From: Myxococcota bacterium
GTDB taxonomy: Bacteria; Myxococcota_A; Polyangia; Polyangiales; Houyiibacteriaceae
DNA length: 64,000 bases
Direction of reading: 5' to 3'
NCBI GenBank assembly: GCA_039030515.1
Contig: JBCCEA010000005.1
Location: forward strand, 32,001 to 96,000
In this document: positions 15,193-57,906 of the stretch, piece after piece
Layout of the letters: every line of letters begins with the position of its first letter
How positions within the stretch are numbered: position 1 is the stretch's first letter
Translations under genes and position numbers: made by a program
Notes under the pieces: generated by a model
Database searches by the model: none
Told to the model about the DNA's origin: nothing
The model's input: the letters and a program-made list of their open reading frames with translations, nothing else

Positions 15193-16335
15193 TTGCCTGA
15201 AAAACATTCTCCAAAGAGCACACCCAGTCGGCGGAGAGGTTATCTCTCTGCAGGGGGCGTAGTTTTTGTGTCGTTGCTTTTCAAGGTAATATTAGCTCTC
15301 ATCGCATTTGGATATTACCGATTTTTCACATGGCGATTTAGAGATCTAGAACCTTTAGAGCCGATACACCCGATACACCCGATACACCCGCTGCCCAGAC
15401 AATTCCCTTGGCGCCCTCCTCATGCCCCGTCCCCCAGGTCCAATTGGTCGCTGCAGCAAGCTACCCCCCACCCAGGAGGGATTCCTCTCTGCGTAGCGAT
15501 CTGGAAAGGAGCGAACACGAGTACGTGGGGCCCTGTCATGACGGGACAGGCCAACCACTGGCTGTCTCCAAGAGACAAAGCCTGGGAGGTTCCTCAGGGA
15601 ATTCATGGTGTTGTGGTCAACCCCTTTCCGGGGTGCGAAGCGGTCTTAATTCGACCTGATGGTACTTCGCTGACGATACCCGCAGCGGGTCCTCGAACCT
15701 TTGCTAGTGCATTCGGTACCATGCCAACGAGCATCACCGCGAGGTCGACCAGGGACCGCAAAGTACGAGTCGACAGTTTTTATGCGATGCGTGCAACGGC
15801 ACCTGCGAACCCAGCTCGGTTTTTCGAACCAATGCTTCGCGCCTTGCCGGAGGGCATCAATGGCCTAAACGGGATCTTCGGTCCAGACACGCTGGCGCTT
15901 CACCCTTCTCGCCCAGATACGGAAATCGATAATCCTAGTTCTCCGCATGCAGCCGAGGAGTATCGCGACGGTCTTGTAGTGTACAGAAACGGAGGGCATC
16001 TGGCGGTGGTCAATGCGATGCTCTCCAATCTCTACGGTCCGGCAAGCTTGGTAGACGCACATGGGAGCCGCGGATTCAGCGATGACCGGGTAGGGACACT
16101 CATGAGAGATCTCGATTTGCATGGTTTTGGGGTCGGGCTTCGGCGAGACCACCGAGGAGAGATCGTGGGGCTCGAGATACACTGGAAATCCCGTGGCGTG
16201 AATTGCGTCCGCGACCCCAGGTCCGGAGCCCTTGTGAAGCCTGATAAGAGGCACGAGATCACGGCCGCACTTAGGAAGCTATACCGAGGGCCTATCACTT
16301 TCGTCGAAGACCCACCTGTTGCGTGTCCGCGCTAG
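15193..16335 (+). CDS. Orphan membrane-anchored/secreted protein, paralogue 1 of a three-member family
   Basis: N-terminal hydrophobic helix, (PIH)3 linker, then CVAIW, FPGCE, NGIFG, HPS, GGH, WKSRGVNC, PPVAC; collinear with the ORFs at 20396 and 56725. Confidence 0.8.
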   Translation: MPEKHSPKSTPSRRRGYLSAGGVVFVSLLFKVILALIAFGYYRFFTWRFRDLEPLEPIHPIHPIHPLPRQFPWRPPHAPSPRSNWSLQQATPHPGGIPLCVAIWKGANTSTWGPVMTGQANHWLSPRDKAWEVPQGIHGVVVNPFPGCEAVLIRPDGTSLTIPAAGPRTFASAFGTMPTSITARSTRDRKVRVDSFYAMRATAPANPARFFEPMLRALPEGINGLNGIFGPDTLALHPSRPDTEIDNPSSPHAAEEYRDGLVVYRNGGHLAVVNAMLSNLYGPASLVDAHGSRGFSDDRVGTLMRDLDLHGFGVGLRRDHRGEIVGLEIHWKSRGVNCVRDPRSGALVKPDKRHEITAALRKLYRGPITFVEDPPVACPR

Positions 16336-16368
16336 CGGGTCGCCTAGTTCTCCCTCTACCGCGCCGAC

Positions 16369-16417
16369 ATTTACCGTACCTGGTATGGTTTGTCCTGGCC
16401 TTGTCCAGGTTCACAGG
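16369..16417 (+). repeat. 27-47-bp dispersed motif, copy b
   Basis: ATTTACCGTACCTGGTATGGTTTGTCC (16369-16395); 23/27 identical to the reverse complement of 24112-24138; similarity extends to TCACAG. Confidence 0.6.
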
Positions 16418-16560
16418 GCACGTGGCTGGAGCCATTGTCGATGCGACCTCGCACCGAAGTCGGCACCCTGCTAGACGGCGAAGATTGCAGAGCGATCTTC
16501 GAACCGAGGGCTGCACGGGGCGCTGATCTTAGGGGGCACATCAATGCATTTGGGGGATTC

Positions 16561-17325
16561 ATGATGGAACTGAGCGCCGTCATTCAAGCGCGGATGTCTT
16601 CGCGGCGTTTGCCCGGCAAGGTGATGCGTGACCTCGGCGGAACACCTGCGCTGGCTCACGTCGTCAAACGCTGCCGCGGCTTTGCGACTCAAGTCGTCGT
16701 GTGTACCAGCACCGACGCAAGCGACGACCCGATCGCAGGCTGGTGCGACCGTGAAGAAGTGCTCGTGGTCCGCGGCTCACTCGACAACGTATTTGCCAGA
16801 TTCCGCCAAACGCTACGCCACCCGCAGCTGAGGCAGACAGAGTTCTTCGCGAGGGTGACTGCAGACTGCCCACTCGTGAGCGATACCCTCGCGAACGAGG
16901 CGCTCCAAGTCGCGAGCTCAGAGCACGCCGACTACGTGGGCTTTGCTCCCGATTCCGCAGCAAGGGGGCTCGCCGTCGAAATCCTACGGACGCAAGCTTT
17001 TGAACGCATCGATATCGAATCGCTGTCTCGCTACGAACGCGAGCATGTGGCGCCGCGACTCTACAACGGCGTTGGCCACTTCAACGCGGTCTACATCAGC
17101 GCCCCGAAGGAGCTGGCGCATGCAGAGGTGCGTCTCACCCTCGACTATCCGGAGGATGCTGCGCTGCTCGATACGCTTTTATCGACCGACACCGACATGA
17201 CGGCCGAAGAAGCGGTGCGCCGGGTACTCGAAGATCCGCAGCTTTTTCGAATGAACGCCCATTGTAGGCAGCTGACCGACAATCAGCAGCGGAGCGAACC
17301 CGACAAAGAGCCCGGCGCGAACTGA
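16561..17325 (+). CDS. SpsF/PseF-like cytidylyltransferase
   Basis: 'VIQARMSSRRLPGKV', 'RGSLDNVFARF', 'RVTADCP', 'REHV', 'RLTLDYPED'. Confidence 0.85.
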   Translation: MMELSAVIQARMSSRRLPGKVMRDLGGTPALAHVVKRCRGFATQVVVCTSTDASDDPIAGWCDREEVLVVRGSLDNVFARFRQTLRHPQLRQTEFFARVTADCPLVSDTLANEALQVASSEHADYVGFAPDSAARGLAVEILRTQAFERIDIESLSRYEREHVAPRLYNGVGHFNAVYISAPKELAHAEVRLTLDYPEDAALLDTLLSTDTDMTAEEAVRRVLEDPQLFRMNAHCRQLTDNQQRSEPDKEPGAN

Positions 17326-17373
17326 CTCGCTTGGCCTTGTTCCAATCCTTCGGCAGAGGAGTCGGGCAGATGC

Positions 17374-17592
17374 AATAAGACGCAATCGATACAGCAGTCT
17401 CCAATAGCTAGAGTCCTTGGAGTGGCTTAGGACGGATCGTAAAAGGCTGGTATTTTGCACGTCAGACGACAGCGCGGTGAACTTCGCCGAACCCACATGA
17501 TTGCGGTTTGGAGCTTGTTTGCCGCCATCGTTGCACTTCTGATGCGTCCCAGAGCACGCACGCTCACGCTCGTAAGCCAGGGGATCCACCGC
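17374..17592 (+). repeat. 219-bp direct repeat A, copy 1 (dead-end 5' part of paralogue 2)
   Basis: Aligns ungapped with 20315-20533, about 9 mismatches by manual count. Confidence 0.95.
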
Positions 17593-17819
17593 TTCCGGCA
17601 ATGCGAATTGACATCCCCCTCTGCTTTGACGTTTTCTGAACGCAGGCCATATCGACCAAGGTCTGTTTCGAGCAGCAAGCGAAGGTGTTCCGCAGGGCCG
17701 GGCTCTTTCCCATCTTATGTCAAACATCATGCTCAATGAGTTTGATCAGTGGCTAGAGGCGAAATACTTAAGCAAGAAAGCTCGCTGAGCATGGAACTTC
17801 GGCTACAGCAAACCCGGCC

Positions 17820-18295
17820 CATCTGTCGGCCTTCATCGACCTCTACGCTAGGCGCGTTGTCGGCTATGCACTTGCGGACCGTAAGCGCACTGAGCTGTCG
17901 CTCCAAGCCTTTCAGCGCTCCCTTGCACTTTGCGGTGTCGGCGCCTCTCTTATCCTTCACAGCAACCGTGGGGATGAATGCGCAAGTCACGACTTTCGAG
18001 TCCTTCTCCAAGCGGTAGGTGCCATGCAGAGCGTAAGCGAAGCCGGCAACTGCTACGACAACGCCGTTGCAGAATCCTTCTTCGCTTCACTCGAACAAGT
18101 CTTGATCATGCGCACCCGATTCGAGACACGACAAAACGCCATGGCCAGCGTCACCTACTACATCCATAATTTCTATAACCCTATACGGCGGCATTCCCAC
18201 AATGGGCTTGTCAGACCAGAGAAGGCCTTCCTTGCATCCTTTCAACCCCTGGCTGCTTGAACATTTCTTCTCTCCACTTTTTCCGGGCAACTCCA
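17820..18295 (+). mobile_element. IS3-family remnant (integrase-core C-terminal part plus right end)
   Basis: Frame reads 'FIDLYARRVVGY...LILHSNRG...SEAGNCYDNAVAESFF...FYNPIRRHS' (stop 18260); catalytic HSD reads HSN; IRR-like TCTCCACTTTTTCCGGGCAACTCCA ends at 18295; orfA and left end not found. Confidence 0.85.
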
Positions 18296-18444
18296 CCGGA
18301 AACATAAAGTTCCGAAGAAAGGGCATTTCAGCCTCTTTCAATCAGCTTTAATTTCATAATATTCCGTTTATACTGAAGACCGATCCATATGCAGTATTGT
18401 ATGAGAAGACAAGGCTCGATTGCTGAATACGGAGGAGGGCTTCC

Positions 18445-20304
18445 TTGATATTAGGGTTCGAAGAAGAACTTACAGACTACTTTAATCTCATCAAAAGATT
18501 ACGAACTATATCCCCAATTAACCAAGAACGAAGCCAAACAGTTCCACTAAACGTAATCGATAGCTTGTCCTACTTTCAAGACGGATCCGAACTTCAACTG
18601 GCCCCGATCGCTAACCAGCTGAGACTCGCCGCAAGCAACATTCCAAGGGCAACGATGACGATCCGCAAGCTCAAAGAAAAACAATGCTTTGTTCTCTTGA
18701 GTTATAGTCCTTACCCGCATTTTCAGATCTTCTTCCGCAGTCGTACATCCCCTGTCATCGCTGATAACCTAGCTCTTTTTGTCGCGCGATTCGCTTGCGG
18801 AGAGGGATGGCAACGATACAACGCCGTTCAGAGACTCGACATTCCCGTGCGCACTTTAAGACAGAGCGCATCCAAGCCTCATCACGTTGAGAGCATAACT
18901 GAGAGACATCCCTACCCCGCTCTGTGGCCAAACCACCCAACTACGTATGGTGAACAGTTCAGACACCCAACTACCGATAAACATGCCAGCAGATCCTCAC
19001 TACTTGTGCAAGCTTTTCAAATTGCGACATGCGGTACATCTTCTCAACGAAGTGACAACAACGAATCTCAGTCAACAGATGACGAATGTTCCGTATTCGG
19101 CATTACGCCTTTCTCGGGGTTCGCTGCAGTCATACGATTTATCCGACTGGGGAGATTAAGAGTTTTGAAGGTTGAACCTTGGCAACGAAGCCCAGGAGAC
19201 CGAGCGTGGTTACCCCTTCGAAAAAAACCAGATCACATAACAAAACACCACGCCATGGTGACAAAGATGTTGGCGGGACGAAGCCTTGTCGATGATGCGG
19301 TAGCGCATATCGTTCATTGGCTCACCCAGTGCATCGAGAATCATGCAAATGCCGCTGAGCAAGACAGAGACCTAGATTTTTCTCTGTCATCAAAACTCAT
19401 AGCAGCAAGCTGCAACGCATACTATGAGCCGAGAAACGCCGAGAAACGATACTCACACAAGATTGAGGCAAACCTAGACGACTATGCTGACCTCAACCGA
19501 TTAGCGAGAATATTTGTCGCGCACGTTGTAGGATACACCGAAGAGCCTATGAGCTTCCAAAAAATATGGACTCTACTTCGGTTCATCGAGAATTTCATCT
19601 ACTCTAGAAAGATCCATATCGAAACGATAGCAAGACAGCTAGATCACTATTCATTGAATATTTATCTGAACCGATCTAGCTTAGATGAATATGTAACAAA
19701 TTTCGCCCGAGAAATTAGTGCATTAAAACCAGGTCAATGCATTTTCAAACAAAGCGCCTTTGACGGACACGCAATACTTTATCTATTGTTTAGACCTACA
19801 GACCTGTTTATCCAAGGCAGCCCGATCTGCTTTATTGAATGCAACTCAGGTTATCGAGCAGAGAGAAACGGCACCGTTTTCGAGGAGAAAACTCAACCGT
19901 ACTCGGAACTTCGGGCATCGGTCCGTTGTGGGCGCACTTTCTTAAGAAGGCGTCAGATGGAAGAGATGATTATGCCTAATATTTATACGCTAAACTCGCA
20001 CCAAACATGTTCGGAAACAGAAGCGCTGTCGCGACTACTAGGTTATTGGACGCTACAATATCAGAATTCCTTGCCCAAAGATTCCGAAGCATATCAACAG
20101 AGCATCGAAGAACCTCATTGGTCGATTGAACACTATCATCTAGCAAGCTCTTTGAATCATCATCCGCACTTCTCCACACTTCGGCAAATCCTCGCAGTAC
20201 CAGCTCAAGCCGGTGTCAGCTGCACCACTCAGTCACTGCTTATGGGTCTTAGAGCTATGGGCGCGCTGTATTTGGGACCTGCTGTGACAACCGGTAAAGC
20301 TTGA
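18445..20304 (+). CDS. AT-rich orphan with a putative cysteine-protease domain (H...N...Q-x4-C)
   Basis: 619-aa ORF visibly more AT-rich than its flanks; 'DGHAILY', 'FIECNSGY', 'PAQAGVSC'. Start uncertain. Confidence 0.6.
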   Translation: MILGFEEELTDYFNLIKRLRTISPINQERSQTVPLNVIDSLSYFQDGSELQLAPIANQLRLAASNIPRATMTIRKLKEKQCFVLLSYSPYPHFQIFFRSRTSPVIADNLALFVARFACGEGWQRYNAVQRLDIPVRTLRQSASKPHHVESITERHPYPALWPNHPTTYGEQFRHPTTDKHASRSSLLVQAFQIATCGTSSQRSDNNESQSTDDECSVFGITPFSGFAAVIRFIRLGRLRVLKVEPWQRSPGDRAWLPLRKKPDHITKHHAMVTKMLAGRSLVDDAVAHIVHWLTQCIENHANAAEQDRDLDFSLSSKLIAASCNAYYEPRNAEKRYSHKIEANLDDYADLNRLARIFVAHVVGYTEEPMSFQKIWTLLRFIENFIYSRKIHIETIARQLDHYSLNIYLNRSSLDEYVTNFAREISALKPGQCIFKQSAFDGHAILYLLFRPTDLFIQGSPICFIECNSGYRAERNGTVFEEKTQPYSELRASVRCGRTFLRRRQMEEMIMPNIYTLNSHQTCSETEALSRLLGYWTLQYQNSLPKDSEAYQQSIEEPHWSIEHYHLASSLNHHPHFSTLRQILAVPAQAGVSCTTQSLLMGLRAMGALYLGPAVTTGKA

Positions 20305-20314
20305 ATTCTACAGA

Positions 20315-20533
20315 AATAAGACGCAATCGACGCAGCAGTCTCCGATAGCTAGAGTCCTTGGAGTGGCTTAGGCCGGATCGCAGAAGGCTGGTATTTTGCA
20401 CGTCAGACGACAGCGCGGTGAACTTCGCCGAACCCACATGATTGCGGTTTGGAGCTTGTTTGCCGCCATCGTTGCACTTCTGATGCGTCCCAGAGCACGC
20501 ACGCTCACGGTCGTGAGCCAGGGGACCCACCGC
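20315..20533 (+). repeat. 219-bp direct repeat A, copy 2
   Basis: Matches 17374-17592; continues into paralogue 2. Confidence 0.95.
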
Positions 20534-21410
20534 CCCAACGCAGCAGATCCTCCGTGTGCAGCTTTTTGGACGAGCACGGAGCCTTTGAGGCCCGACTCCT
20601 ATCGACTGCATGGAAAACCACAGTGGTTGACGCCGGGAGACCCCCCCCATAAACCAACAGGTCATTGGCGCTGTGGTCTTCCCGGGCTGCGAGATAGTGA
20701 TGAGAGCGCCCTGGAGCTTTTCTGAAGTCGTCCCTTCCCACCAAATTTGGGCGCACCCGCCAAGCAAAGCGGAGGGTCCTCCGTTATTCAGAACGATTTC
20801 GGTCCGAAAAGCACGGAGCGGCGAGGTTGCCGCCTGGTACGGCGTGGCAGGTCTTAAGCCGCCTATCGACCCGAGGGCGAAGTTCCGGAGGATGCTCAAA
20901 TTGCTTCCGCCCGACGTGAATGGGTTTCAAGGCATTTATGGGGAGGACGGCACCTTGGTTCTCCATCCTTCGCGGCACGTTGGACAGGTAGACGACTTCC
21001 ACGACGTCTATGATTGGGAGTTGGCCGTGCAGACACGGTGCATTTCTCAGGGTCTTGTCCCCAGGCAGCATGGACATGTTAAAGTCTTGTTTAAGCTCCT
21101 TGCACTCACGAATGGCATGACGCGGGTGAGCGGTCCTCAGCAGGAGCAAGCCGTGGAGGAACGTTTGAGATTCACTGAAGGGCAGATTCGCACGCGGGGA
21201 CTCGTGGGGTTTGCGTTTACTTTCAAACGCCGCCGCGATGGAGGATTCGATGGCACGTTGTACTGGACTTCACGGCAACTCAATTGCCTCATTCCAAATG
21301 CGGACGGCAGCGCTCCTCCTGAGGCAAGGCAGGCCATCGAGGTGGCGATGAGGGAGATCTTTCCGGGTACGCTCAGATCGGCTGCCCCCAATCCTCCCGG
21401 ATGCAAGTAA
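20396..21410 (+). CDS. Paralogue 2 of the orphan family, split by a +1 frameshift at a C8 run
   Basis: The 5' frame gives a hydrophobic helix, CAAFW and WLTPGDPP. Removing one C at 20641-20648 joins it to INQQVIGAVVFPGCE...QGIYG...HPS...HGH...WTSRQLNC...PPGCK. Confidence 0.75.
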
Positions 21411-21629
21411 ACGAGTCTGTGAAGCTGGCGCAGAGCCCAAGGCGCGCAGCCGCGATCGGGCAGGCGCTGGCACGATAGACTCCGACCCGTTCGACAGGCA
21501 ACAACTCGCGTCCTGCTGAGACGTCTATCGGTCTTCAAAGACAGGCTGCATCCTAATCAAACGCTGCCGACTCCTGGACCGGATAGCGCCACAGACCCGG
21601 CATGGCGCTTTCGCGCTAGGCTGTGCCGC

Positions 21630-22541
21630 ATGGACTTTGCCTTTCTATATGACGCGCTCATCGCGAAACTGAAGCTGTGGGCTGAAGGGCTCACGACGAT
21701 GTTGCCCAACGCGATGGTCGCCACTGCCGTCGTGATCGCATTTTGGCTGCTTTCAAAACTTGCCTACAAGGTGAGCCAAAAAACCCTTGAACGCATCCAG
21801 ACGAATAAGGCGGCTCGCTCGCTCATGAGTACCGCGGTGCGCGTGTCTGTATTTGGCGCGGGTATCGTCATAGCACTAGGCGTGCTAAATCTCGACAAGG
21901 CGCTCACCTCGATACTCGCAGGCGCAGGGGTGGTCGGCCTTGCTTTGGGATTTGCGTTTCAGGATCTCGCCGCAAACCTCATTTCCGGAATCGGTCTCGC
22001 GATGAATCAGGAGCTGCCGTTCAAAATCGGAGATGTGGTAGAGACCAACAATACCTTCGGCACGGTCAAGAGCATCGGACTAAGAACCTCTCTCATCCAC
22101 ACTCCGGACGGAAAGACCGTGGTCATTCCAAATAAGAATGTGTATCAGGATAAGGTCGTAAACTATAGCGCCGCTGGCCGAATACGCATCGACCTGAGCT
22201 GCGGCGTATCGTACGGAGACGACCTGCAAAAAGTGCAATCCGTGGCTCTAGAAGCGATGGAGCAATTATCCAGTCGCGATACGTCATTGCCCGTCGAATT
22301 CTACTTTCAGGGATTCGGCGATAGTTCGATCAACCTGCTCGCCTGTTTCTGGGTGCGGTACGAAAAACACGCCGACTACCTGAACGCGATGAGTGAAGCC
22401 GTAAAGCGCTTAAAGGGCGCCTTCGACGAGCACGACATCGTGATTCCGTTTCCCATTCGCACCCTGGACTTCGGAATCCGCGGTGGCGAGCCGCTTGCAA
22501 GTGTCTTGGCGCACAGAGCAGATCGATCGCCCGGCGCTTGA
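21630..22541 (+). CDS. mscS: Small-conductance mechanosensitive channel
   Basis: 'GAGVVGLALGFAFQD', 'PFKIGD', 'IPN', 'GFGDSSIN', 'IPFP'. Confidence 0.92.
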   Translation: MDFAFLYDALIAKLKLWAEGLTTMLPNAMVATAVVIAFWLLSKLAYKVSQKTLERIQTNKAARSLMSTAVRVSVFGAGIVIALGVLNLDKALTSILAGAGVVGLALGFAFQDLAANLISGIGLAMNQELPFKIGDVVETNNTFGTVKSIGLRTSLIHTPDGKTVVIPNKNVYQDKVVNYSAAGRIRIDLSCGVSYGDDLQKVQSVALEAMEQLSSRDTSLPVEFYFQGFGDSSINLLACFWVRYEKHADYLNAMSEAVKRLKGAFDEHDIVIPFPIRTLDFGIRGGEPLASVLAHRADRSPGA

Positions 22542-22598
22542 AATCAGGGGAAATCGGGTCAACTGGAGCCCAGAACGGAATGTTGTATATGATTGGGC

Positions 22599-23852
22599 AT
22601 GGAAGACCGAGCATTTATACCGCTCAATGACCCCAGCGTTCCGGGTAGATTTGTGCTTATCGGTAACCCTGATAAAGACGTCAATGGCTGTCTTGGGTAC
22701 AATAAAAACGATATGAGCACTGCCGCTTTGACGGGGTCCTCCGAAGCGGGAATGACTCTCGAAGCCTTACTCCGCACCGCACACCGCGCCGTCCGGGCAG
22801 CCAGGCATTTCGTTCCAAACCCCCTGAACCACTATGGTTCGCCAGTCCTGGGGTCACTCTACAACATGGAGCACATGCTGTTGGCTTTGAACTGGTATGG
22901 AAAAGAATATCTCGCAAAAAGTCTTCAAGCTAGGTTCAGTTTACCGAAAAGTGCCGCAGACACGATGGCTACCTACATCGCGGTTGCGAGCGCAGGCAGA
23001 GTGGGTGGCACAGGAGTATGCGATACTTATGCAGCTCTAGTGATGTTGCACCTGAGTGCATATGCTGAGGGGCCGTGTGTGATTTCAATGCGCTTCGTTG
23101 AGGCACCAGGTTACCCCAATACCGAGCACGCAATCGTGGAAGTAGAATCAGGGGGAAATCGGGTAGTGATCGATGCGTGGCCCGAAACGCCACGTGTGCT
23201 CCCTCCGGAACACACCCTCTATCCTTCGGATAAGTGCACATCTGTGATGGCAATACTCGTGGAGCAGCCAGGTCCGTTACTTTTGAAAATGCCGTTATTA
23301 GCGACTGGTCGTAGTGCTGAGAAGGCTCTTCACGAGAAAGCACACGAAATAGAACGGATAATACGGCGATCGGGAATAAGCCGGGACGCCCAGATTCCCG
23401 CAGATGAATTGTTTTCGGGCCCCATGATTCAGTCTAGCAACGCCACCCCAGTAAATGACGCGCATCGCGTTCGGCTAATGGCACTCCCGGAAATCAGGAG
23501 AACCAGGGAACCTCCGTGGCGTAGAGACCCGATGACTAAGTCACGCATGCCTCCAGGCGGAGCGGGACCGATCTTTGACCCTGCTTGGTGGGCAAACCAC
23601 CCATCCCCTTGGAATTCATCTTCATGGCTCGAACCGAGATCTATCCCGTCGCGCTCGATGCCTTTGGGTGAATCTTCCGCACTGCCGTCAACTCCGGGCT
23701 CATCCACTACGACGCCTCTTATAGCTCTTGCAACGATTTTTTTTGGAGCCCTACTGCATTATTGCCTCAAGAAAAAGCCCTCGGGCCCAACTTCAGCGAA
23801 TGGACGTGGAAGGAGTCCTGGGCCCCAGCCGCGACGTCGAGGTCGACGCTAA
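22599..23852 (+). CDS. Orphan with papain/transglutaminase-like Cys-His-Asp triad and C-terminal TM plus basic tail
   Basis: 'GVCDTYAA', 'EHAIVEV', 'VVIDAWP'; Pro/Ser-rich linker; 'LIALATIFFGALLHYCL-KKK...RRRGRR'. Confidence 0.65.
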   Translation: MEDRAFIPLNDPSVPGRFVLIGNPDKDVNGCLGYNKNDMSTAALTGSSEAGMTLEALLRTAHRAVRAARHFVPNPLNHYGSPVLGSLYNMEHMLLALNWYGKEYLAKSLQARFSLPKSAADTMATYIAVASAGRVGGTGVCDTYAALVMLHLSAYAEGPCVISMRFVEAPGYPNTEHAIVEVESGGNRVVIDAWPETPRVLPPEHTLYPSDKCTSVMAILVEQPGPLLLKMPLLATGRSAEKALHEKAHEIERIIRRSGISRDAQIPADELFSGPMIQSSNATPVNDAHRVRLMALPEIRRTREPPWRRDPMTKSRMPPGGAGPIFDPAWWANHPSPWNSSSWLEPRSIPSRSMPLGESSALPSTPGSSTTTPLIALATIFFGALLHYCLKKKPSGPTSANGRGRSPGPQPRRRGRR

Positions 23853-23884
23853 TAATCGTAGACGGACAATAATCGTAGACGGAC
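23851..23884. repeat. 17-bp tandem duplication
   Basis: AATAATCGTAGACGGAC x2. Confidence 0.9.
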
Positions 23885-23971
23885 GAAGCGATCCCTCTGC
23901 CTGGTCAGGCAAGCCGAACGACCCCGCCCACAAGTCGCAGTCGAGGATCATGCATGCTCACATGGCAGACA

Positions 23972-24138
23972 GGGTAACCAGGGCGCGTCCTGGACACACC
24001 GCACTGGGTACGGACGTCTGAGCCTGCTGGTGGGTGCTGTGACGTGGGCGCGTCCTGGACAAGCCGTACCAGGAACGGTGGATTGGGTTCGCTGTGACCA
24101 AGGAGCGTCCTGGACAACTCGTACCAGGTACGGTGAAT
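23972..24138 (-). repeat. Cluster of three degenerate ~45-bp repeats (copies of the dispersed motif)
   Basis: GCGTCCTGGACA recurs at about 23985, 24050 and 24105; core palindrome CGTACC-A-GGTACG at 24120-24132. Confidence 0.75.
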
Positions 24139-48081: not shown

Positions 48082-48120
48082 CGACTGATTGGCAGTGTGA
48101 ATGAAACCCTGGTCCCAATC

Positions 48121-48733: not shown

Positions 48734-49207
48734 TTACATCCCGGAGGATGCGCCTTTGCCTACGACTGAAGTCGCAGTGCTAAACACGGAATCGATTTCT
48801 ACGTGTCTCACAGCTGGTTCCTGAACCAAGCGAAGTAAACGGATGCGATCGACCTCTGCAGTCCATTGATAGGGCCCAGACGAGGCCATACCCAAGGACT
48901 CGTAGCGTTCCACTTCAGCATCAGCCGGCTCACGATGAAGCGAGGCACGAATACGTATTGTGTCGCTTTGGCGTACCCCGTCGAGCCAGAGCCAAAGCTT
49001 CAGATGGACTTTTCGACGCTGCCACTGGCTCAGTATCCCCTGCCATCCAGTGCCTACTTCGTCAGCACCTAATTCTTCGGATGCCTGCTGCTCCGAAAGA
49101 TAGGAAGGATGCTCCACGGCATTTAGAGTTGTTGTCGTGCTGCTGCATGCAGCGAGCCCGATACATAGAAAAGGGGCTTTAAGACAATTGCTCTCGAAAC
49201 GCATCAT
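48734..49207 (-). CDS. Hypothetical lipoprotein, paralogue of the previous gene
   Basis: Lipobox 'LAAC'; same shared motifs. Confidence 0.7.
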   Translation of the reverse strand: MMRFESNCLKAPFLCIGLAACSSTTTTLNAVEHPSYLSEQQASEELGADEVGTGWQGILSQWQRRKVHLKLWLWLDGVRQSDTIRIRASLHREPADAEVERYESLGMASSGPYQWTAEVDRIRLLRLVQEPAVRHVEIDSVFSTATSVVGKGASSGM

Positions 49208-49637
49208 GTCCTCCGAGCATTCGACACCACTGGGTTGGTCGGAGAAAACCTGACCACCGCAGTCGCTATGCCTTTGGATGAATCGATCACTGCAAAACCA
49301 CGCGATGTGCGCCTTGGCAATCTGTATGCCGCAACGAAAAACAGGTACCGAAGCGCCAAAAAAGCGGACCTAAGTCTCATAGAGCGCGAATTAGTGATGG
49401 AGACGGTCTTTTTCCGACCTCACAGGTGGCTTCTATATTAGCCGCTCAATTCGAGACAAAATCTGACGTTGTCGGTCCTTACACCCCTATATCCATGTTG
49501 CTTCAGAACATTCTTTGGACTTCAAGCAACAACCTTCACTCTACCTCCGTACATCTCATCGATTGAGACACGTCACCGTCACCGTCGTCACGGGAACGAA
49601 AAAAAACACCCCGTTTGGCTCACGAGGCGTCAAGTGG

Positions 49638-50540
49638 CTAATGTCGTGACCGGATGGCATCTGCCATGGCCAAGAGGGACCTTGCGGACTCAACGTGCAG
49701 GTTCTCGATGAGCTTGCCGTCTACCGTCACCACGCCCTTGCCCTGACGCAGTGCCTCTCGATGGGCATCGATCACCTTCTGAGCCAAAGCGATCGCTTCG
49801 TCAGCAGGCGCAAACGCTTTGTTCGCCGGACCGATCTGTTTTGGGTGGATCAAGGTCTTGCCATCAAACCCCAGTTCAGCGCCTTGCTCGCAACTGAATA
49901 CAAATCCGGCTTCGTCTTCTAAATCGAGATGGACTCCATCGAGCGCGGCGATACCGACAGAGCGCGCAGCCAACAACACGAGGCCCAAAGAAGGCAATAA
50001 GGGGGTTCTTGCATGGGTGTGAGCACAACCCAGATCTTTGGCCAGATCACTGGTACCCAGAACGAATCCCCCGATCCTCGGCGTGGCTTCCGCGATCTGG
50101 GCAGCTTGGAGCACACCGCGTGGCGTCTCGATCATGCACCACAAACGGAGCGTGTCGGATGCTCCGGCGTCAGAGAGAATCGAAGCAGACTTTCGAACCT
50201 CGTCCGCACTTTCCACTTTGGGCAGCAAAACCACGTCTGCGCCGGAAGCCGCGGCGACCTTGAGATCAGCCACCCCCCATGGGGTGTCTCTTCCGTTGAC
50301 GCGAATGATCAGCTCTCGATGTCCGTAGCCACCCTGCTTCACAGCTTCGACCACTTGTGCTCTAGCTTGCTCTTTCTGATCCGGAGCAACAGAGTCTTCT
50401 AGATCCATGATCAGCGCATCCGCATCCAGGCTACGCCCCTTGGTCAGGGATCGGGCATTGCTTCCCGGCATGTAGAGGACGCTGCGACGAGGTCTTGATG
50501 CAACACGCATGCATTTCGAATAACGCAGAACGGCAGACAT
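49638..50540 (-). CDS. CitE-like CoA-ester lyase (malyl-/citryl-CoA lyase or thioesterase family)
   Basis: 'RRSVLYMPG', 'DLEDSV', 'IRVN', 'MIETP', 'GFDGKTLIHPKQ'. Confidence 0.9.
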   Translation of the reverse strand: MSAVLRYSKCMRVASRPRRSVLYMPGSNARSLTKGRSLDADALIMDLEDSVAPDQKEQARAQVVEAVKQGGYGHRELIIRVNGRDTPWGVADLKVAAASGADVVLLPKVESADEVRKSASILSDAGASDTLRLWCMIETPRGVLQAAQIAEATPRIGGFVLGTSDLAKDLGCAHTHARTPLLPSLGLVLLAARSVGIAALDGVHLDLEDEAGFVFSCEQGAELGFDGKTLIHPKQIGPANKAFAPADEAIALAQKVIDAHREALRQGKGVVTVDGKLIENLHVESARSLLAMADAIRSRH

Positions 50541-50961
50541 GACCGGGTCCCCGCATGAGTTCCATCACTGAGACATTCTCAGCGTTACTTGTGAATTCAT
50601 CTCCGTTACGGAAACCTTGGTACGCGCCGCTGGGGCATGTCGACTCCACGATTGCTCGCTCCAAGAGCACCACCTCGCGCAAAACAAGAGCAGCAGGCTT
50701 CGCGACCCACGTCTTGACCCTCTATTCAGGGCAGATGTCTCGCTATGGTCGATAAATGCGGGGGTAGAAGACCGAGCTTCGTGCTATCTCTCACATCGAA
50801 CATCACGCATTGGGCAGTTCCGCTGATCTTTGATGTGTTGTCTCTCAAAGCGCTCTACTGCCTCAACTACCCCACTGTTTAGCGTACTCAATCGATGGGC
50901 CTCTCACGCGGGCCCTCGAAATACCCCGTCAAAGCAACCTCTTGACCGAAGCTACCTCGCG

Positions 50962-53007
50962 ATGGCCCAGCAAACACCTATGATCCCTCAGCAGAACTTG
51001 GCTGAGCAACCCCAGTTGATCGTCGAAGGAACTCCAGCGGCTACCTACGAAGGTGTCAGAGCACCGGCCCGCAAAACGCTAAAAACCTCTCCACGTGAGC
51101 GACTTCAGCGCACCAGCGACTGGACGGTCAGCAACAGTGAAGAGACCTATCATATTCGCGGTTGGGGCCATCCGTATTTTCGCATCAACGACAAGGGGCA
51201 CGTCGAGGTGCTGCCCGATCCGACGCGCCATCCGATCGATCTGTACGAAGTGGTGGAGCAAGTAGGAGCGCGGGGCCTCGAGCTTCCACTGTTGATTCGG
51301 TTTCCAAACATCCTCGAGCATCGGATCCGGCTCATCAACGAGGCATTTCAAGCGGCGATCGAGGAATACGAGTACCGAGGCAGCTACCGAGGCGTCTTTC
51401 CGATCAAAGTAAACCAGCAGCGACACTTGGTGGAGGAGGTCGTGCACTTCGGCCGACCGTTCCGATACGGTTTGGAAGCCGGCAGCAAACCGGAGCTCTT
51501 GATCGCTTTGGCGATGATGAACGACCCTGACGGTTTCATCATTTGCAACGGTTATAAAGACGAGATCTTCATGGAAACGGCCCTGGTGGGTTCGCGGTTC
51601 GATAAGGAGGTGATCGTCGTCCTCGAGCGCGCGGAAGAGCTGGAACTGATCCTGCGCGCGTCGAAAAAGCTGGGGATTCGCCCAAGTCTCGGAGTCCGAG
51701 CCAAACTCAGCTCGAAGGGCATGGGTCGCTGGAGCGGGTCGTCGGGCGATCGAGCCAAGTTCGGCCTTGCCACCGCGGAGTTGGTCAACCTCATCGATGA
51801 ACTCGCCGCTCTCGATATGCTCGACTGCCTCAAATTGCTCCACTTTCACATCGGGAGCCAAGTCTCGAGCATCCTCCCGATCAAGAACGCAATTCGCGAA
51901 GCGGCAAACCTCTATGTCGAACTGGCGAAAATGGGCGCAGCGATGGGGTATTTGGATGTCGGCGGAGGCCTTGCGGTGGACTACGACGGCAGCAAAACCG
52001 ACTTCCGAGGCAGCAAGAACTACGACCTCGCTGAGTACGCGGCGGACGTGGTGCACGGCATCAAAGAGGCCTGTGACAAGGCGGAGGTCGCCGAGCCGAT
52101 CATCGTCACAGAGGCAGGCAGGGCTGTCGCCGCGTATCAATCGGTCTTGGTTTTCGAAGCGGTAGGTGCCGACATCGTCCGATTTGGCGCTCCCAAAGAG
52201 CCTCCGGAGGACGCCCATCGCGTGCTCGACGAGTTGTACTACACTTGGAAAAATATCGTCCCGAAAAACGTCCAAGAATCCTTCCACGACGCGATGCAGG
52301 CACGCGAAGAAGCACGAAGTCTCTTTCGCTATGGCTATTTACCCCTGAGAACCCTCGCGATTGCAGAGCGGCTGTTCTGGCATTGCTGCGAAAAGATCAG
52401 CGACAATCTGAGCCGGCTCAAGTACGTGCCCGAAGAGCTGCAGCAGCTCGAAGAAACGCTCAGCGCGATTTACTACTGCAATTTTTCGATGTTTCAGTCC
52501 GCGCCGGACGTTTGGGCGATCCAACAGCTCTTTCCGATCATGCCGATCCACCGCCTTGAAGAACGGCCTTCCGAGCGGGCCACGCTTGCCGACTTGACCT
52601 GCGACAGCGATGGCATGATCAAAAATTTCATCGATCCCGAGGAGGACAAGAAAGTTCTCGAAGTCCATGAGCTGCGAAAAGGCGAACGCTACTTGATGGC
52701 GATGTTTTTGGTCGGGGCCTACCAAGAAATCTTGGGCGACATGCACAATTTATTCGGAGACACCAACGCGGTTCACGTCCGGCTCGAAAATTCAGGCTAC
52801 AGCGTGGCACACGTCATCAAAGGGGATGCCATCGACGAGGTGTTTCGTTATGTTTCGTATGATCCCGAAGACATGGTGGAACGAGTGCGTCAACAAGCCG
52901 AACGCGCGCTGAATCAAGGTCGAATGGACCTGTCCCACGTTCGCACTTTTATGCGGCACTACGAGCGCACCCTCAAGAGCTACACGTACCTAACCGCCGA
53001 GGAATGA
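50962..53007 (+). CDS. speA: Biosynthetic arginine decarboxylase
   Basis: 'FPIKVNQQR', 'GLEAGSKPEL', 'LHFHIGSQ', 'DVGGGL', 'DLTCDSDG', 'GAYQEILGDMHNLFG'. Confidence 0.97.
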   Translation: MAQQTPMIPQQNLAEQPQLIVEGTPAATYEGVRAPARKTLKTSPRERLQRTSDWTVSNSEETYHIRGWGHPYFRINDKGHVEVLPDPTRHPIDLYEVVEQVGARGLELPLLIRFPNILEHRIRLINEAFQAAIEEYEYRGSYRGVFPIKVNQQRHLVEEVVHFGRPFRYGLEAGSKPELLIALAMMNDPDGFIICNGYKDEIFMETALVGSRFDKEVIVVLERAEELELILRASKKLGIRPSLGVRAKLSSKGMGRWSGSSGDRAKFGLATAELVNLIDELAALDMLDCLKLLHFHIGSQVSSILPIKNAIREAANLYVELAKMGAAMGYLDVGGGLAVDYDGSKTDFRGSKNYDLAEYAADVVHGIKEACDKAEVAEPIIVTEAGRAVAAYQSVLVFEAVGADIVRFGAPKEPPEDAHRVLDELYYTWKNIVPKNVQESFHDAMQAREEARSLFRYGYLPLRTLAIAERLFWHCCEKISDNLSRLKYVPEELQQLEETLSAIYYCNFSMFQSAPDVWAIQQLFPIMPIHRLEERPSERATLADLTCDSDGMIKNFIDPEEDKKVLEVHELRKGERYLMAMFLVGAYQEILGDMHNLFGDTNAVHVRLENSGYSVAHVIKGDAIDEVFRYVSYDPEDMVERVRQQAERALNQGRMDLSHVRTFMRHYERTLKSYTYLTAEE

Positions 53008-53018
53008 TGGTTTGAGCA

Positions 53019-53744
53019 ATGGTGGACTCGCGCATCCTGGTCGTCACACCCACGTACAACGAACGCCCCAATATCGGCAGCTTCATCACTCAGCTCTTCG
53101 AGGCACTACCTCAAGCACACTGTTTGATCGTCGACGACAATTCTCCTGACGGGACCGGTGAACTTGCGGAAGAACTCGCCGCCAAAGATCCCCGTGTTCG
53201 CGTGATTCATCGCCCTCGTAAGCTTGGGCTCGGCAGCGCCTACCTTCAGGCATTTGAGCGCGGCCTGCAGGATGGATACGACGTACTGATCGAGATGGAT
53301 GCCGACCATTCCCACAATCCTCGATATCTCCCGGGCATGCTCGCCGAGTTGGACAGCCGAGCCGACCTGATCATCGGATCCCGCAACATTGCCGGCGGCG
53401 GCGTAGACGGCTGGGGCTTCGGGCGACACGTGCTCAGCAAGGGGGGCAGCCTCTACAGCCGAATGCTGTTGGGGGTGTCACCACGCGACCTGACCAGCGG
53501 ATACAAAATCTTTCGGAGAGAGGTGCTCGAGGCGATCGATCTTCAGACCGTTCGCTCCGAAGGGTACTCGTTCCAAATCGAGCTCACCTATCGAGCGATC
53601 CGCAAAGGTTTCACCGTTCGCGAATTTCCTATCGTGTTCGTCGATAGACATGCAGGTAAAAGCAAAATGAGTCGGCGCGTTTTTGCAGAGGCGGTGATGC
53701 TCGTGCCCAAATTGCGAGTTGAGGCGCTTCTTGGACGCATCTAG
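53019..53744 (+). CDS. Polyprenol monophosphomannose synthase (GT2)
   Basis: 'PTYNE', 'VDDNSPDGTG', 'MDADHSH', 'DLTSGYK', 'GYSFQIE'. Confidence 0.92.
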   Translation: MVDSRILVVTPTYNERPNIGSFITQLFEALPQAHCLIVDDNSPDGTGELAEELAAKDPRVRVIHRPRKLGLGSAYLQAFERGLQDGYDVLIEMDADHSHNPRYLPGMLAELDSRADLIIGSRNIAGGGVDGWGFGRHVLSKGGSLYSRMLLGVSPRDLTSGYKIFRREVLEAIDLQTVRSEGYSFQIELTYRAIRKGFTVREFPIVFVDRHAGKSKMSRRVFAEAVMLVPKLRVEALLGRI

Positions 53745-53854
53745 TCGACTACCCTGTAGGCGCCCTGACCACCCAGTGCGCGCAGTGCCGACCCGGCATC
53801 CAATGCCATGATCTGACGTCTACTGCAGCCATCTACAGCCGCGAGGGAGAACCT

Positions 53855-55243
53855 GTGGAACAAATAGAGCGGAAGGACCGATATGCGTCAGCCGGCAGAG
53901 CCGGATTATCGACCGCTACCGTGATCGACCACTGGGGCAACCCGATCACGACGAAAAGCGACCGGGCCGTAGACGCTTTGAACCGCTTCACGCTCGCCTT
54001 TGCCGCGCATCGCGCAGAGGCCCAATCCCTTCTCGATGAAATTTCCTGCGCCGATCCGGATCTGACCCTTCTGTTCGTCGTCCGCGGCTTTTCGATCTCG
54101 TTCTTGATGCGAAACGATCACTGGCAGCACGCACGCTCGATGTGTACGCGCGCCAAGCACATCAGTTCTCAGAGGGGAGCGACCCCACGAGAGAAGGGAT
54201 TGATCGCTGCCCTCGAGGCATGGCTACGCCGCGACGTGGATGCGGCTATCGATATGCTCGAGAGCCTCGTAAGTTGCAATCCTCGCGATCTACTCACCTT
54301 CAAACTCACCCACGCCTGCAACTTCATTCTAGGCCGGCCTCAGAGGATGCGGGCCAGTGCGGAGCGCGCGCTGAAGTCCTGGCACCCGCTCATCCCAGGC
54401 TACGGGCACGCTTTGGGCTGTCTTGCTTTTGCTCTTGAGGAGACCGGTGACTACGAAACCGCAGAGGTCGTGGGCAGGCAGGCAGTGGAGGCTGAACCAG
54501 GCAGCGCTTGGGCGATCCACGCAGTGGCTCATGTATTTGAGATGACCGACCGCCAAAAAGTCGGCACCGAGTGGCTCGAGAGTCATCGAATCGCGTGGAG
54601 TCAGTGTGGCAATTTCGCCGGACACTGCACCTGGCACCTGGCACTGTTTCATTTGGAGCTCGGTGAGATCGAAGAGGCGCTGGCCCTATATCCATCGATC
54701 CGTTCACATATCCAGCAAGATTTCCGCGACTTCAGCAATGCGGCTTCCCTACTGTGGCGCCTGGAGCAAGAAGGCTGCACTCTCGATACGGAATGGAATG
54801 AACTCGCTCGGTTGGCAAAAGCCAACGCCTTCGATCACGGCTGCGCCTTTGCGGACGTGCACTACGCACTCATTTTATTGCAGGCGGGTCGCCCTGAAGA
54901 GGCCTTGAAGGCGCTCCGATCGATGCGCGCCTACGCCGAACCGAGAACGCATCACTTTGCGAGCGTTATTTCAAAGGTTGCGTGTCCCATCGTGGAAGGA
55001 TTGATTGACCTCGACCAGGGCAGAATCGAGACAGGTCTTGAATACCTGGAGTCCATTCAGGGCAAGACGCAGCCCATGGGGGGCAGTCACGCTCAGAGAG
55101 ATCTTTTTGAACAACTGTGGATCGCTGGTGCTGTGCGTTGGAATCAGGCCCAGATCGCCGAGAGCGCACTGCAGAGCCGGCTTCAGCGGAGGCCTCAAAA
55201 CCGCTGGGCCATCCAAAAATTGCAGACGCTAAAAGACGGCTAA
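53855..55243 (+). CDS. TTC38-like tetratricopeptide-repeat protein
   Basis: 'AFALEETG', 'WAIHAVAHVFEM', 'HCTWHLAL', 'ASLLWRL', 'GGSHAQRD'. Confidence 0.85.
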   Translation: MEQIERKDRYASAGRAGLSTATVIDHWGNPITTKSDRAVDALNRFTLAFAAHRAEAQSLLDEISCADPDLTLLFVVRGFSISFLMRNDHWQHARSMCTRAKHISSQRGATPREKGLIAALEAWLRRDVDAAIDMLESLVSCNPRDLLTFKLTHACNFILGRPQRMRASAERALKSWHPLIPGYGHALGCLAFALEETGDYETAEVVGRQAVEAEPGSAWAIHAVAHVFEMTDRQKVGTEWLESHRIAWSQCGNFAGHCTWHLALFHLELGEIEEALALYPSIRSHIQQDFRDFSNAASLLWRLEQEGCTLDTEWNELARLAKANAFDHGCAFADVHYALILLQAGRPEEALKALRSMRAYAEPRTHHFASVISKVACPIVEGLIDLDQGRIETGLEYLESIQGKTQPMGGSHAQRDLFEQLWIAGAVRWNQAQIAESALQSRLQRRPQNRWAIQKLQTLKDG

Positions 55244-55479
55244 CGAATATACTGCGCGCTGAATGCAATGCATTCGATAGCCGAATCTAGTGAGCAGTCG
55301 GGACGCGTCTGTCGCGTCTGATCGATGCGCTCACCGATTTAACTCGATTTCAGAAACCCGTCTCGTCGTGGACATCGCGTGTAGCGTGGCGCACGATGAA
55401 GGGCGTTCTATCAAAAGCTCTACGACCTTAAGGTCTGCAAGCTTCTGTGCACACCGCTCTCATTAAGAGAAATTCTGAT

Positions 55480-56352
55480 ATGACCGCGGAGGATCAGGCG
55501 GCGCGCACGATTCAGAGCATCGTACGTGGTTTCCTAGAAATTGGTCGTCGACGACATCTCGATCATGCTGCAAATGCAATACAGCGATGGTTCCGATCTT
55601 GTCAGGCGAGAGCCTACTTGCCCGAGCGCGTGTATGTCGATGGGGAAGGGGACATTTGCGTCCATTTCACCGCCGGAGTCTCATTCACGCTCGTTCCCCG
55701 AGACGTTGGGTCCCAAGACATCGAGATGGGGCCAACGGATAGATCTACCGCACGACTCGTTGCACAACGTCGGATCATAAGAACAAGCAAAGCTGTCCGA
55801 TGCGGAAACCCTGCATGTGGGAAAAGGGTCAGCAGCACAAGCAACCCGCCAGATTGGTGGTCACCAGCTGAAGTAAAGGCGCGAACGCTCTTTCTAAACG
55901 TCGGGGATCATGAAGGGGCCTTCGGCAACAGAGGCGGTTCTCAAGCTCGTCGCCCCGCCAGGACTAGCGGACTGTGTAGGAGCTGCCTGATGGAGGAGGT
56001 TCGCCGCAACGCTTTTGCAGGGATAGAGACAGGAGATCCCACCGGTTGCGACCCAGCCGCGACGCGCGAAGCTTTTCAGGCTTTGCTCGCCGCTTTGGAT
56101 GAGCGGCTCCCTATCCGCGTGGAGCACCTAGAATCCCCCCTACCCGTCGTTCAACCGCCTCCACAGAATGGAATATCGCAATACCAATGTAAAAAAAGAC
56201 CACTCCACTCTCAACTCAGGCATCGGATCAAAGTTGAGTGCTACTTTGCGTTCATCGTTTTCACTCTCATCGCCTGTGCTGCCCTTTTCGGATGGATCGT
56301 GTACGAGCACACCTATTCGTCTGACCGACTTCTCGGCAGCGTCAGCCCTTAG
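55480..56352 (+). CDS. Orphan with two IQ-like motifs, Cys pairs and a C-terminal TM helix
   Basis: 'AARTIQSIVRGFL', 'AANAIQRWFRSCQAR'; 'CGNPAC' and 'CRSC'; hydrophobic 'YFAFIVFTLIACAALFGWIVY'. Confidence 0.65.
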   Translation: MTAEDQAARTIQSIVRGFLEIGRRRHLDHAANAIQRWFRSCQARAYLPERVYVDGEGDICVHFTAGVSFTLVPRDVGSQDIEMGPTDRSTARLVAQRRIIRTSKAVRCGNPACGKRVSSTSNPPDWWSPAEVKARTLFLNVGDHEGAFGNRGGSQARRPARTSGLCRSCLMEEVRRNAFAGIETGDPTGCDPAATREAFQALLAALDERLPIRVEHLESPLPVVQPPPQNGISQYQCKKRPLHSQLRHRIKVECYFAFIVFTLIACAALFGWIVYEHTYSSDRLLGSVSP

Positions 56353-56419
56353 GGTAGCTGCAGGGACCAAACAGGCAGCTTTTCCTTTTCAAGCCACGCA
56401 TAGACTCCGTAGGTCTGCA
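56232..56419 (+). repeat. 188-bp direct repeat B, copy 1
   Basis: Aligns ungapped with 58086-58273, about 6 mismatches by manual count. Confidence 0.95.
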
Positions 56420-56724
56420 TGCCGCCAATCGCTCATGAAGCCGTCAAGAACGCGAGCTTTTTTCGCAACAAATCTATGAATTATTGAAATCGCTATCCTT
56501 TGGATGCACTTGGCGTATCAGCACAGAATAGCGAAGCCGATAATGCAATCAGGGTACTTAGAAGAGTTGATTTAGCGAGACGTAGAGCATGACAAATGAA
56601 GCTTGGATTCCTATTGATATCTCATATCTAGAAACAGCTCTTGCGCACTTGACCAGATGGACGTGACGTGCAGAGTTAAGGATGATATCCGAACAAGCAG
56701 GCCTCAGTCTCCGATGGATACTAG

Positions 56725-57906
56725 TTGATGAGTCTTAGTCCTACAAATACTGGCTCTGACCGACATGATCCAGTCGTTGACCCGCAAGTCAGGCCCCCTC
56801 CTGGTGCAGCACGTCAGCAGCGATGCAGAATGAGGCCTCAGTACTTGTTACTTCTCTACGTGGCAGTGCTTCTGCCTCACTATCGACGCATCGGAGCGAT
56901 CCTGCGAGGCAGAGGATTTGCACCCTTAGGTCCGGTACAACCACTCAATCGCTGGTCTTCTCCGGACACGACGCTTGCCTGGTCCGGCGACTTTGCATGG
57001 CCCAATAACTGGGTGAACGCGACGCATCCCTCCGGGGGGGCGCATCAAAGCGTTCTGCCTTGCGTGGCTCTATGGATCCACGAGTCGAATCCAACTCAAA
57101 TGCATCGAAATCCTGATGAGCCTGTCCTACAGGATCCCGGCAAATGGCTGGATAGAGACAAGTGCGTTCCGGTTCCCGGAGGCAGCCGAGCAGTGGTCGT
57201 CGTCTACCCGGGATGTGAAGCCACCGTGACGAGCAGTGACGGGGCGATGTCGGTTGTGGTGACCGCGGTAAGACCTCAAACATTTGCTACGGGAGAACAC
57301 TCTGGAACATATTATGTATCAGCTCATCCAGTGAATCCTAAAGAACAACGCATCCAAAATTGGTACGATATCCGCGGGACACCACCCCACATCAACCCCT
57401 CCCAACGATTTCAATACATGCTTGACAGTATGCCAGAGGATGTAACTGGGTTTAACGGTGTATACGGCACGGGTTTATTCGTCGTTCACGCTTCTCTCGA
57501 GCCATCCTTCATGATGCTATTTCGTCCGCAACGGCGTGCGAAGATGGAAGCAGGAATCGTCACTAGTCGGAGAACGGGACACGAGAAAGTCCTCAACTTT
57601 TTGCTCCGTGCTTACTACGGACCGGGGCCCGACCCAGATGCAGGCACAGTAGGATCACGACGACAACAGGCGCAGAACCTCATGAAGCAGCTGGACCTGG
57701 CAGGCTTTGCACTAGTGATGAAGAGAAACCGGAAAGGCTCCGTCGTCCGACTCGGACTGAGCTTCAAGTCGAGGGGGATCAATTGCCGAGGCTCGGGAGC
57801 CAACGGCCTCGCAGACGAGCGTATGCAGAGGGCTATCACCCGGAAAGTCGAGAGCCTATTCCAGGGGCCAGTAGTGAGGATCGAACATCCACCCGTTATG
57901 TGTTGA
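56725..57906 (+). CDS. Paralogue 3 of the orphan family
   Basis: Hydrophobic 'YLLLLYVAVLL', CVALW, YPGCE, FNGVYG, HAS, TGH, FKSRGINC, PPVMC. True start may be ATG 56830. Confidence 0.8.
   Translation: MMSLSPTNTGSDRHDPVVDPQVRPPPGAARQQRCRMRPQYLLLLYVAVLLPHYRRIGAILRGRGFAPLGPVQPLNRWSSPDTTLAWSGDFAWPNNWVNATHPSGGAHQSVLPCVALWIHESNPTQMHRNPDEPVLQDPGKWLDRDKCVPVPGGSRAVVVVYPGCEATVTSSDGAMSVVVTAVRPQTFATGEHSGTYYVSAHPVNPKEQRIQNWYDIRGTPPHINPSQRFQYMLDSMPEDVTGFNGVYGTGLFVVHASLEPSFMMLFRPQRRAKMEAGIVTSRRTGHEKVLNFLLRAYYGPGPDPDAGTVGSRRQQAQNLMKQLDLAGFALVMKRNRKGSVVRLGLSFKSRGINCRGSGANGLADERMQRAITRKVESLFQGPVVRIEHPPVMC

Follow-up and report, generated by a model that had tools for sequence, protein, structure and literature searches.

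A four-member family of putative single-pass envelope proteins found in one genome of an uncultured marine myxobacterium

A 64,000-nt stretch of a Myxococcota genome assembly (contig C5:32001-96000, JBCCEA010000005.1 of GCA_039030515.1; 4.08 Mb, 75 contigs, 85% complete), called here the window, carries three dispersed members of a protein family, and a fourth member is encoded elsewhere in the same assembly. The proteins share a common layout: a basic N-terminal tail, one hydrophobic helix, a proline-rich linker, a beta domain and an alpha/beta domain (C-domain). At roughly even chances, the four paralogues are genome-restricted, fast-diverging single-pass envelope proteins of an uncultured marine Polyangiales-type myxobacterium. 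Their combination of domains is new, and the fold may be new as well. Copies 1 to 3 are those of the window and copy 4 is that of contig C11; residue numbers refer to copy 3 unless another copy is named.

Copy 1 (15193..16335, plus strand, 380 aa) and copy 3 (56725..57906, plus strand, 393 aa) are intact. Copy 1 has cysteines at its positions C100, C148, C338 and C378 and no others, and retains its helix with a TTG start alone; copy 3 also has an ATG at 56728 and an alternative ATG at codon 36. Copy 2, on the same strand, is split between two frames which meet at a run of eight cytosines (C8, 20641..20648). The upstream frame (20396..20648, in a frame open over 20396-20725) encodes the basic tail, the hydrophobic helix, CAAFW and WL and is lost at the C8 tract, and the downstream frame (20649..21410, with a GTG-started open reading frame (ORF) at 20673-21410) encodes FPGCE, the remaining beta domain and the whole alpha/beta domain. 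All three genes, including the frameshifted 20396-21410, are present as a first-pass annotation of this DNA had described them, in one collinear layout.

Alignment of the three proteins gives pairwise similarity far beyond chance (tblastn E 2e-41 to 1e-16). Within the window, copies 1 and 3 share 31-33% identity over 287-340 aa (E 2e-41 and 2e-40), and either of them matches the downstream frame of copy 2 (20649-21404) at 28-29% over 237-261 aa (E 1e-16 and 7e-16); the best tblastn match beyond the three copies reaches only E 0.55. A search of the whole assembly adds copy 4 (C11:62958-64127, minus strand, 389 aa, intact; E 6e-31); the paralogy claimed by the annotation stands, and its count of three becomes four. 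Domain hidden Markov models revealed no fifth full member among 46,290 six-frame ORFs of the genome, the next E-values being at least 0.2. Judged by their sequences, the copies are true paralogues and make up a genuine four-member family. No DNA likeness is apparent between the flanks of the four copies. The distance to the next gene is 55 nt for copy 1, 220 nt for copy 2, 297 nt for copy 3 (to the convergent slt gene) and 15 nt for copy 4 (to a convergent gene). None of the four has a small same-strand ORF on its 3' side, which upholds the annotation's observation that an immunity-type gene is lacking downstream. Scans for promoters and terminators gave signal at shuffle level.

The search for relatives was negative at every level. 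With copy 3 as query, phmmer against 1,835,955,588 cluster representatives returned four matches, all of them shorter gene calls of the family's own four copies, and a word-indexed search with copy 1 found nothing beyond these copies. The profile of the four-copy alignment retrieved nothing further from proteins of near length or from longer (fused) proteins, the latter search being weak evidence, and single-protein pattern scans of metagenome and genome contig collections found no relative. Among the genomes of 60 relatives, 36 from the family and 24 from the order of this bacterium, the profile gave one match, over 48 positions in the proline-rich linker (E 9.7e-4). In 400 genomes of the phylum there were three, which cover 48-70 positions at E 0.002-0.009 and in two cases contain stop codons; about four are expected by chance. 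Pfam, NCBIfam, PADLOC and PHROGs, at E values up to 10, yielded no more than two matches, each to a single one of the four members: Bflower (E 3.8) and a tail-fibre PHROG (E 0.6); a sequence profile search of the PDB gave no match at E<=10, and Foldseek found nothing at E<=1e-3 in the PDB (whole model and C-domain) or in BFVD (C-domain). As far as these searches reach, the family is restricted to a single genome among all collections searched and is without detectable relatives. The family described by the annotation is borne out as real, dispersed and lineage-restricted, with no convincing match in the 60 related or 400 phylum genomes. As to the host, BipA encoded in the window shares 67-72% identity with proteins from metagenome-assembled genomes of uncultured Polyangiaceae/Polyangiales and 63% with those of Chondromyces and Sorangium.

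Conservation within the family is sparse and patterned. The alignment of the four copies has 30 invariant columns, including PGC, HxS, GH..V, GP, GF, S...NC and the terminal C, concentrated at glycine, proline, cysteine, histidine and aromatic positions, and is without any conserved stretch of 7-10 columns. In the C-domain, the invariant positions include H255-x-S257, G277-x-V-x-x-R282-x-x-G-H286-x-x-V, G-P, G327-F, S349-x-x-x-N-C354, G381 and C393; two histidines are invariant together with arginine, serine and asparagine, and no acidic residue is. WL occurs in all four copies. The motif CxAxW, as annotated, holds for the three copies of the window but not for copy 4, which has CVYVR, whereas the four conserved cysteines noticed at the outset are retained in the four-way alignment, two per domain.

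An AlphaFold2 model of copy 3, run on the four-sequence alignment, agrees with this layout: a helix at residues 38-62 (56836-56910), a disordered proline-rich linker at residues 63-110, an eight-strand beta domain at residues ~111-205 (57055-57339; predicted local distance difference test score, pLDDT, ~75) and an alpha/beta domain at residues 206-393 (57340-57903), all on the plus strand. More narrowly delimited, the two domains run over residues 114-202 and 213-385. Mean pLDDT of the whole model is 60.6, with a predicted template-modelling score (pTM) of 0.54; the C-domain modelled alone reaches 74.4 and 0.75, respectively. The top 19-residue Kyte-Doolittle windows score 2.50, 1.71, 1.42 and 2.37 in copies 1-4, and this analysis shows no hydrophobic segment besides the N-terminal helix in any of the four. 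Net charge before and after the helix is about +4/0, +4/+3, +4/+4 and +5/+3 (copies 1-4), a balance that weakly favours an N-in orientation. ESM Atlas returned no feature match.

These features suggest how an envelope protein of this type might be built. The short basic tail and the hydrophobic helix would act as an uncleaved signal-anchor in the inner membrane, with the N-terminus inside, and a disordered proline-rich stalk of about 50 residues could hold two globular domains away from it, in the periplasm or nearer to the outer membrane. The first of these would be a Greek-key-type sandwich of eight strands and about 95 residues and the second an alpha/beta domain of about 185 residues, each presumably stabilised by one cysteine pair. 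Any activity of the C-domain could involve H255, S257, R282, H286, S349 and N353, either in binding or in a metal-independent or Zn-dependent reaction. The family may spread or move as single-gene segments, as the position of copy 3 between 198-nt repeats would allow.

Several points weigh against this explanation. The helix is flanked by basic residues on both sides and that of copy 3 is weakly hydrophobic (1.42), which makes the topology doubtful, and in three of the four copies the helix is included only with a TTG start. A search of the 85%-complete assembly turned up neither DsbB (PF02600) nor VKOR (PF07884) (among 20 relatives, VKOR occurs in 12 and DsbB in one), which weakens the case for periplasmic disulfide formation. 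The invariant H255, H286, C354 and C393 (two histidines and two cysteines) could equally be metal ligands. No more than four sequences underlie the models, and for copy 3 the ESM Atlas prediction scores poorly (pLDDT 0.31). Finally, rapid divergence, confinement to a single lineage and the absence of conserved neighbours would suit a role in conflict, as an effector, as well as one in the envelope.

The three intact copies keep frames of 380-393 codons open at only 29-34% identity, from which it follows that the reading frame and a defined set of residues are under selection. The paralogues are ~30% identical, as against 41-50% for slt orthologues between genera, and the family was found in no other genus searched although its members are more diverged than these inter-genus orthologues. 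Their third-codon-position GC content (GC3) is 0.55-0.56 in three copies, compared with 0.64-0.69 in housekeeping neighbours. A variant strain of ~95% identity differs, among the records listed, by 5.0% in copy 1 and 3.9% in copy 2, against 1.7-2.3% in neighbouring coding genes; a mainly intergenic piece overlapping the start of an MscS-like gene (21630-22541) differs by 4.2%. The listed strain differences alter an amino acid in four of four cases for copy 2 and one of one for copy 1; for the MscS-like gene the figure is three of nine, and for the upstream ORF 12 of 18. Taken together, such sequence properties indicate a fast-evolving or foreign-derived family. That the copies are decaying ORFs without a function, left behind by a gene of mobile or foreign origin, is an explanation to which we give very little credence: the frameshift of copy 2, whose listed strain differences are all four non-synonymous, the atypical codon usage and the TTG starts are what it would predict, but three full-length frames at ~30% identity, 30 invariant columns and foldable domains are unexpected under neutral decay.

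Copy 2 is both broken and partly duplicated. At the C8 tract, no difference is seen in contigs assembled from two samples of a single marine-metagenome study, of which one is possibly the source; these population data are assembled contigs, in which minority poly-C length variants and empty sites are invisible. Since the contigs of both samples agree at C8, the break is not an obvious assembly slip. A 219-nt direct repeat, 96% identical between its two copies on the plus strand (A1, 17374..17592; A2, 20315..20533), carries in A2 the start of copy 2 and spans 81 nt upstream of the gene and its first 46 codons, hydrophobic helix included. The product of repeat A1 is a truncated fifth 'head' fragment (ORF 17455-17739). 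The unitig of the repeat core is covered to a depth of 40 and its flanks to 17-22, which is what a genuine two-copy repeat should show. Between A1 and A2 lies an insert of 2.7 kb (17593-20314) whose GC content (0.41-0.52) is lower than that of the surroundings and which includes a C-terminal fragment of an IS3-type integrase (18024-18260; rve_3, E 2.5e-6) and an orphan ORF of 619 aa (18445-20304; GC 0.46) with no Pfam match. Weak paralogues of the C-terminal third of this orphan are found on contig C19 and at C5:121594.

Copy 3 is likewise enclosed by direct repeats, and no repeats were seen around copies 1 and 4. Repeat B1 (56222..56419, plus strand, 198 nt) contains the last 43 codons and the stop of ORF 55447-56352, and repeat B2 (58076..58273, plus strand), 95% identical to B1, has as its right end the 3' end of slt (58203-60527, minus strand), which is convergent to copy 3. 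The two enclose a 1656-nt segment in which copy 3 is the sole gene. Orthologues of slt are present in 40 of 40 genomes of the family, and the 3' end of slt in B2 is taken to be native because their alignments reach residue 773-774 of 774. The simplest reading is that the upstream ORF and slt, convergent genes, were formerly adjacent, and that the arrival of the copy-3 segment duplicated the junction between them. In all five 10-kb slt neighbourhoods fetched from family genomes, argdec, GT2, TPR462, the IQ ORF, copy 3, FtsX511 and MbnP are absent; no joint was reported in the population contigs.

The upstream gene just mentioned, 55447-56352 (plus strand, 301 aa), directly 5' of copy 3, is itself an orphan, with N-terminal IQ calmodulin-binding-type motifs (Pfam IQ, E 2.9e-5, 23.9 bits against a cut-off of 20.3) and a hydrophobic C-terminal tail; its GC3 of 0.55 is the same as that of the four-copy family. 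On contig C2 (C2:182993-188200), three adjacent ORFs have IQ matches of 26.4, 22.0 and 19.6 bits, two of which exceed the cut-off, and no match occurs in 14 control genomes. One of the three, of 552 aa (IQ, E 3.6e-7), sits in 1.8 kb of DNA with a GC content of 0.46, bounded by direct repeats of 282 nt. Such repeats recur: pairs of 180-280 nt, whose two members are 91-96% identical and lie 1.9-3.9 kb from each other, enclose orphan genes at, in contig coordinates, C1:48199/52126, C2:186068/188185, C5:49374/52315, C5:88222/90076 and C5:118241/120719, repeats A and B included. The C1 islet has a weak zf-C3HC4_3 match (E 0.008, under the cut-off). Similar pairs on contigs C6 and C25 proved to be merely tandem WD40 paralogues. 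Repeats arranged in this way may reflect the integration of circular DNA through a single crossover, or some comparable duplicative process.

A more adventurous reading, which we hold to be quite improbable, would combine these observations: a new-fold, two-histidine effector family, displayed on the cell or delivered against eukaryotic prey or hosts, would form part of a wider set of membrane-anchored IQ- and RING-like orphans, acquired by this genome in small islets bounded by direct repeats of ~200 nt, with one member switchable through its poly-C tract. The main rival of the envelope explanation is that the proteins are, as the annotation had suggested, exported toxins or effectors against non-self cells (prey or eukaryotic), the C-domain being a two-histidine, metal-independent, RNase-like enzyme whose target the producer does not possess, hence the lack of immunity. 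This is unlikely in our estimation, though it is retained as the main rival because the genome encodes the sheath protein TssC (E 2e-107) of a type VI secretion system (T6SS) and further membrane-anchored orphans bearing motifs of eukaryotic type (the IQ ORF adjacent to copy 3 and those on C2). It would also account for an alpha/beta domain in which two histidines, arginine, serine and asparagine are invariant but no acidic residue is, and for a lineage-specific, quickly diverging family with no immunity-like ORF. Against it, no toxin, nuclease or trafficking family is matched in Pfam, NCBIfam or PADLOC at E<=10; the proteins, of only 380-393 aa, are without an RHS, PAAR, VgrG, FHA or LXG-type N-terminal module and start with a membrane anchor, not with a cleavable signal or a secretion domain; their structural neighbours include no nuclease or toxin fold; and the T6SS gene lies on a contig (C32) other than those of the copies. 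A VirB4-type type IV secretion system was not found in the 85%-complete genome.

The first-pass annotation had likened the order of motifs in the C-domain to Ntox43, a predicted RNase domain of polymorphic toxins. In the passages of Zhang et al. (2012, PMC3482391) that treat it, Ntox43 is described as an alpha+beta domain with two conserved histidines, placed at the end of RHS-type proteins and without immunity genes; the type example given there is the C-terminus of Pseudomonas aeruginosa RhsT, in a type II secretion system and TcdB/TcaC-linked architecture. The alpha/beta domain, the two histidines invariant in four of four copies (H255 and H286) and the missing immunity ORF are shared features, all of them generic, and membership is not established; the four-copy proteins differ in having no RHS or trafficking region and in possessing a membrane anchor and an extra beta domain. 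No Pfam-A family was matched at E<=10 by any of the four members (Bflower in one of them aside), although Pfam-A is not confirmed to hold an Ntox43 model. Foldseek against the PDB and BFVD and the VIA lists gave no nuclease or toxin fold among the neighbours, and the VIA structural lists contain no nuclease, ADP-ribosyltransferase or pore-former, an absence which excludes nothing. With neither a family match nor an appropriate fold nor RHS-type architecture, the proposed likeness comes down to generic features and the RNase-toxin reading is not supported, a sobering outcome for the toxin question.

Two further readings arise from the predicted fold of the C-domain. Its best structural neighbour is human PHPT1 (2nmm), the alignment covering ~86% of the PHPT1 chain, and the C-domain might be a distant phosphohistidine-phosphatase-like domain (Janus/PHPT1 fold) or another phospho-ester enzyme acting in the envelope; we regard this as very unlikely. 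The least probable of all the readings is that the proteins are eukaryote-directed binders of the cytoskeleton, the C-domain being a remote ADF-H/gelsolin-type actin-binding fold within the eukaryote-like, membrane-anchored set to which the IQ ORFs would belong. Among known catalytic motifs that were considered, the 2H phosphoesterase was rejected (the second motif is without T/S), the LD-transpeptidase SxGC was dropped after reading the alignment, and the 'NC' motif does not fit a permuted NlpC/P60 enzyme, its cysteine not being at a helix start in the model. Nor is a lipobox, Tat motif or CaaX box conserved across the copies.

Other features of the genome were noted in passing. Upstream of copy 1, a gene for a HipA-like kinase (12557-13807, plus strand; HipA_C, E 1.7e-45) is preceded by an overlapping ORF of 110 aa (12228-12560), and the two (12228-13807) are probably a HipBA-type toxin-antitoxin pair. 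Copy 1 itself is flanked by a 380-aa ORF (13829-14971; no Pfam match, GC 0.63) and by a CMP-sugar-type cytidylyltransferase (16390-17325; CTP_transf_3, E 7e-20), and may split what was a pair of sugar-nucleotide genes. Numerous tandem repeats, whose periods are ~124-126 nt and ~36 nt, occur on many contigs and often at contig ends.

If expressed, the envelope proteins proposed here would constitute a clean multi-copy family with no detectable relative among ~15 billion predicted proteins. Their domains are foldable, and the C-domain, without a clear structural neighbour, could turn out to have a new fold or a small catalytic site not seen before. That this genome gathers orphan membrane-anchored genes in short repeat-flanked islets bears on the way in which lineage-specific genes are gained.

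Two known systems are instructive in comparison. The annotation had also seen in the PGC motif a likeness to beta/gamma-crystallins, which profile and motif comparisons did not bear out. The beta-gamma-crystallin signature consists of two copies of [YFW]xxxx[YF]xG ... S and a Ca-binding N/D-N/D-x-x-S/T-S motif. Unlike Myxococcus Protein S (1nps), the Flavobacterium protein (3hzb) and hahellin (2kp5), the four-copy family has one F/Y-x-G motif per protein, not two: a single (F/Y)PG occurs in each aligned sequence, an aliphatic residue stands five positions ahead of it where the signature has an aromatic one, and the Ca-binding motif is not evident. PF00030 has no match at E<=10 in any of the four members; in the whole assembly five candidates were scored and none kept at E<=1e-5, and at the same threshold it is found in none of 121 genomes across the phylum. 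Domains of dUTPases, cupins and type IX secretion system C-termini match equally well.

The second comparison is with TonB and FtsN, in which a short cytoplasmic tail is followed by one N-terminal helix, an extended proline-rich linker and one or more C-terminal globular domains. The four-copy proteins are unlike them in having two cysteine-containing domains, no TonB_C, SPOR or other known C-terminal domain (Pfam, E<=10) and no ExbBD- or divisome-type neighbourhood. Only their overall layout is similar, and it is because of this analogy with bitopic, periplasm-spanning TonB and FtsN that an inner-membrane signal-anchor is proposed for the family.

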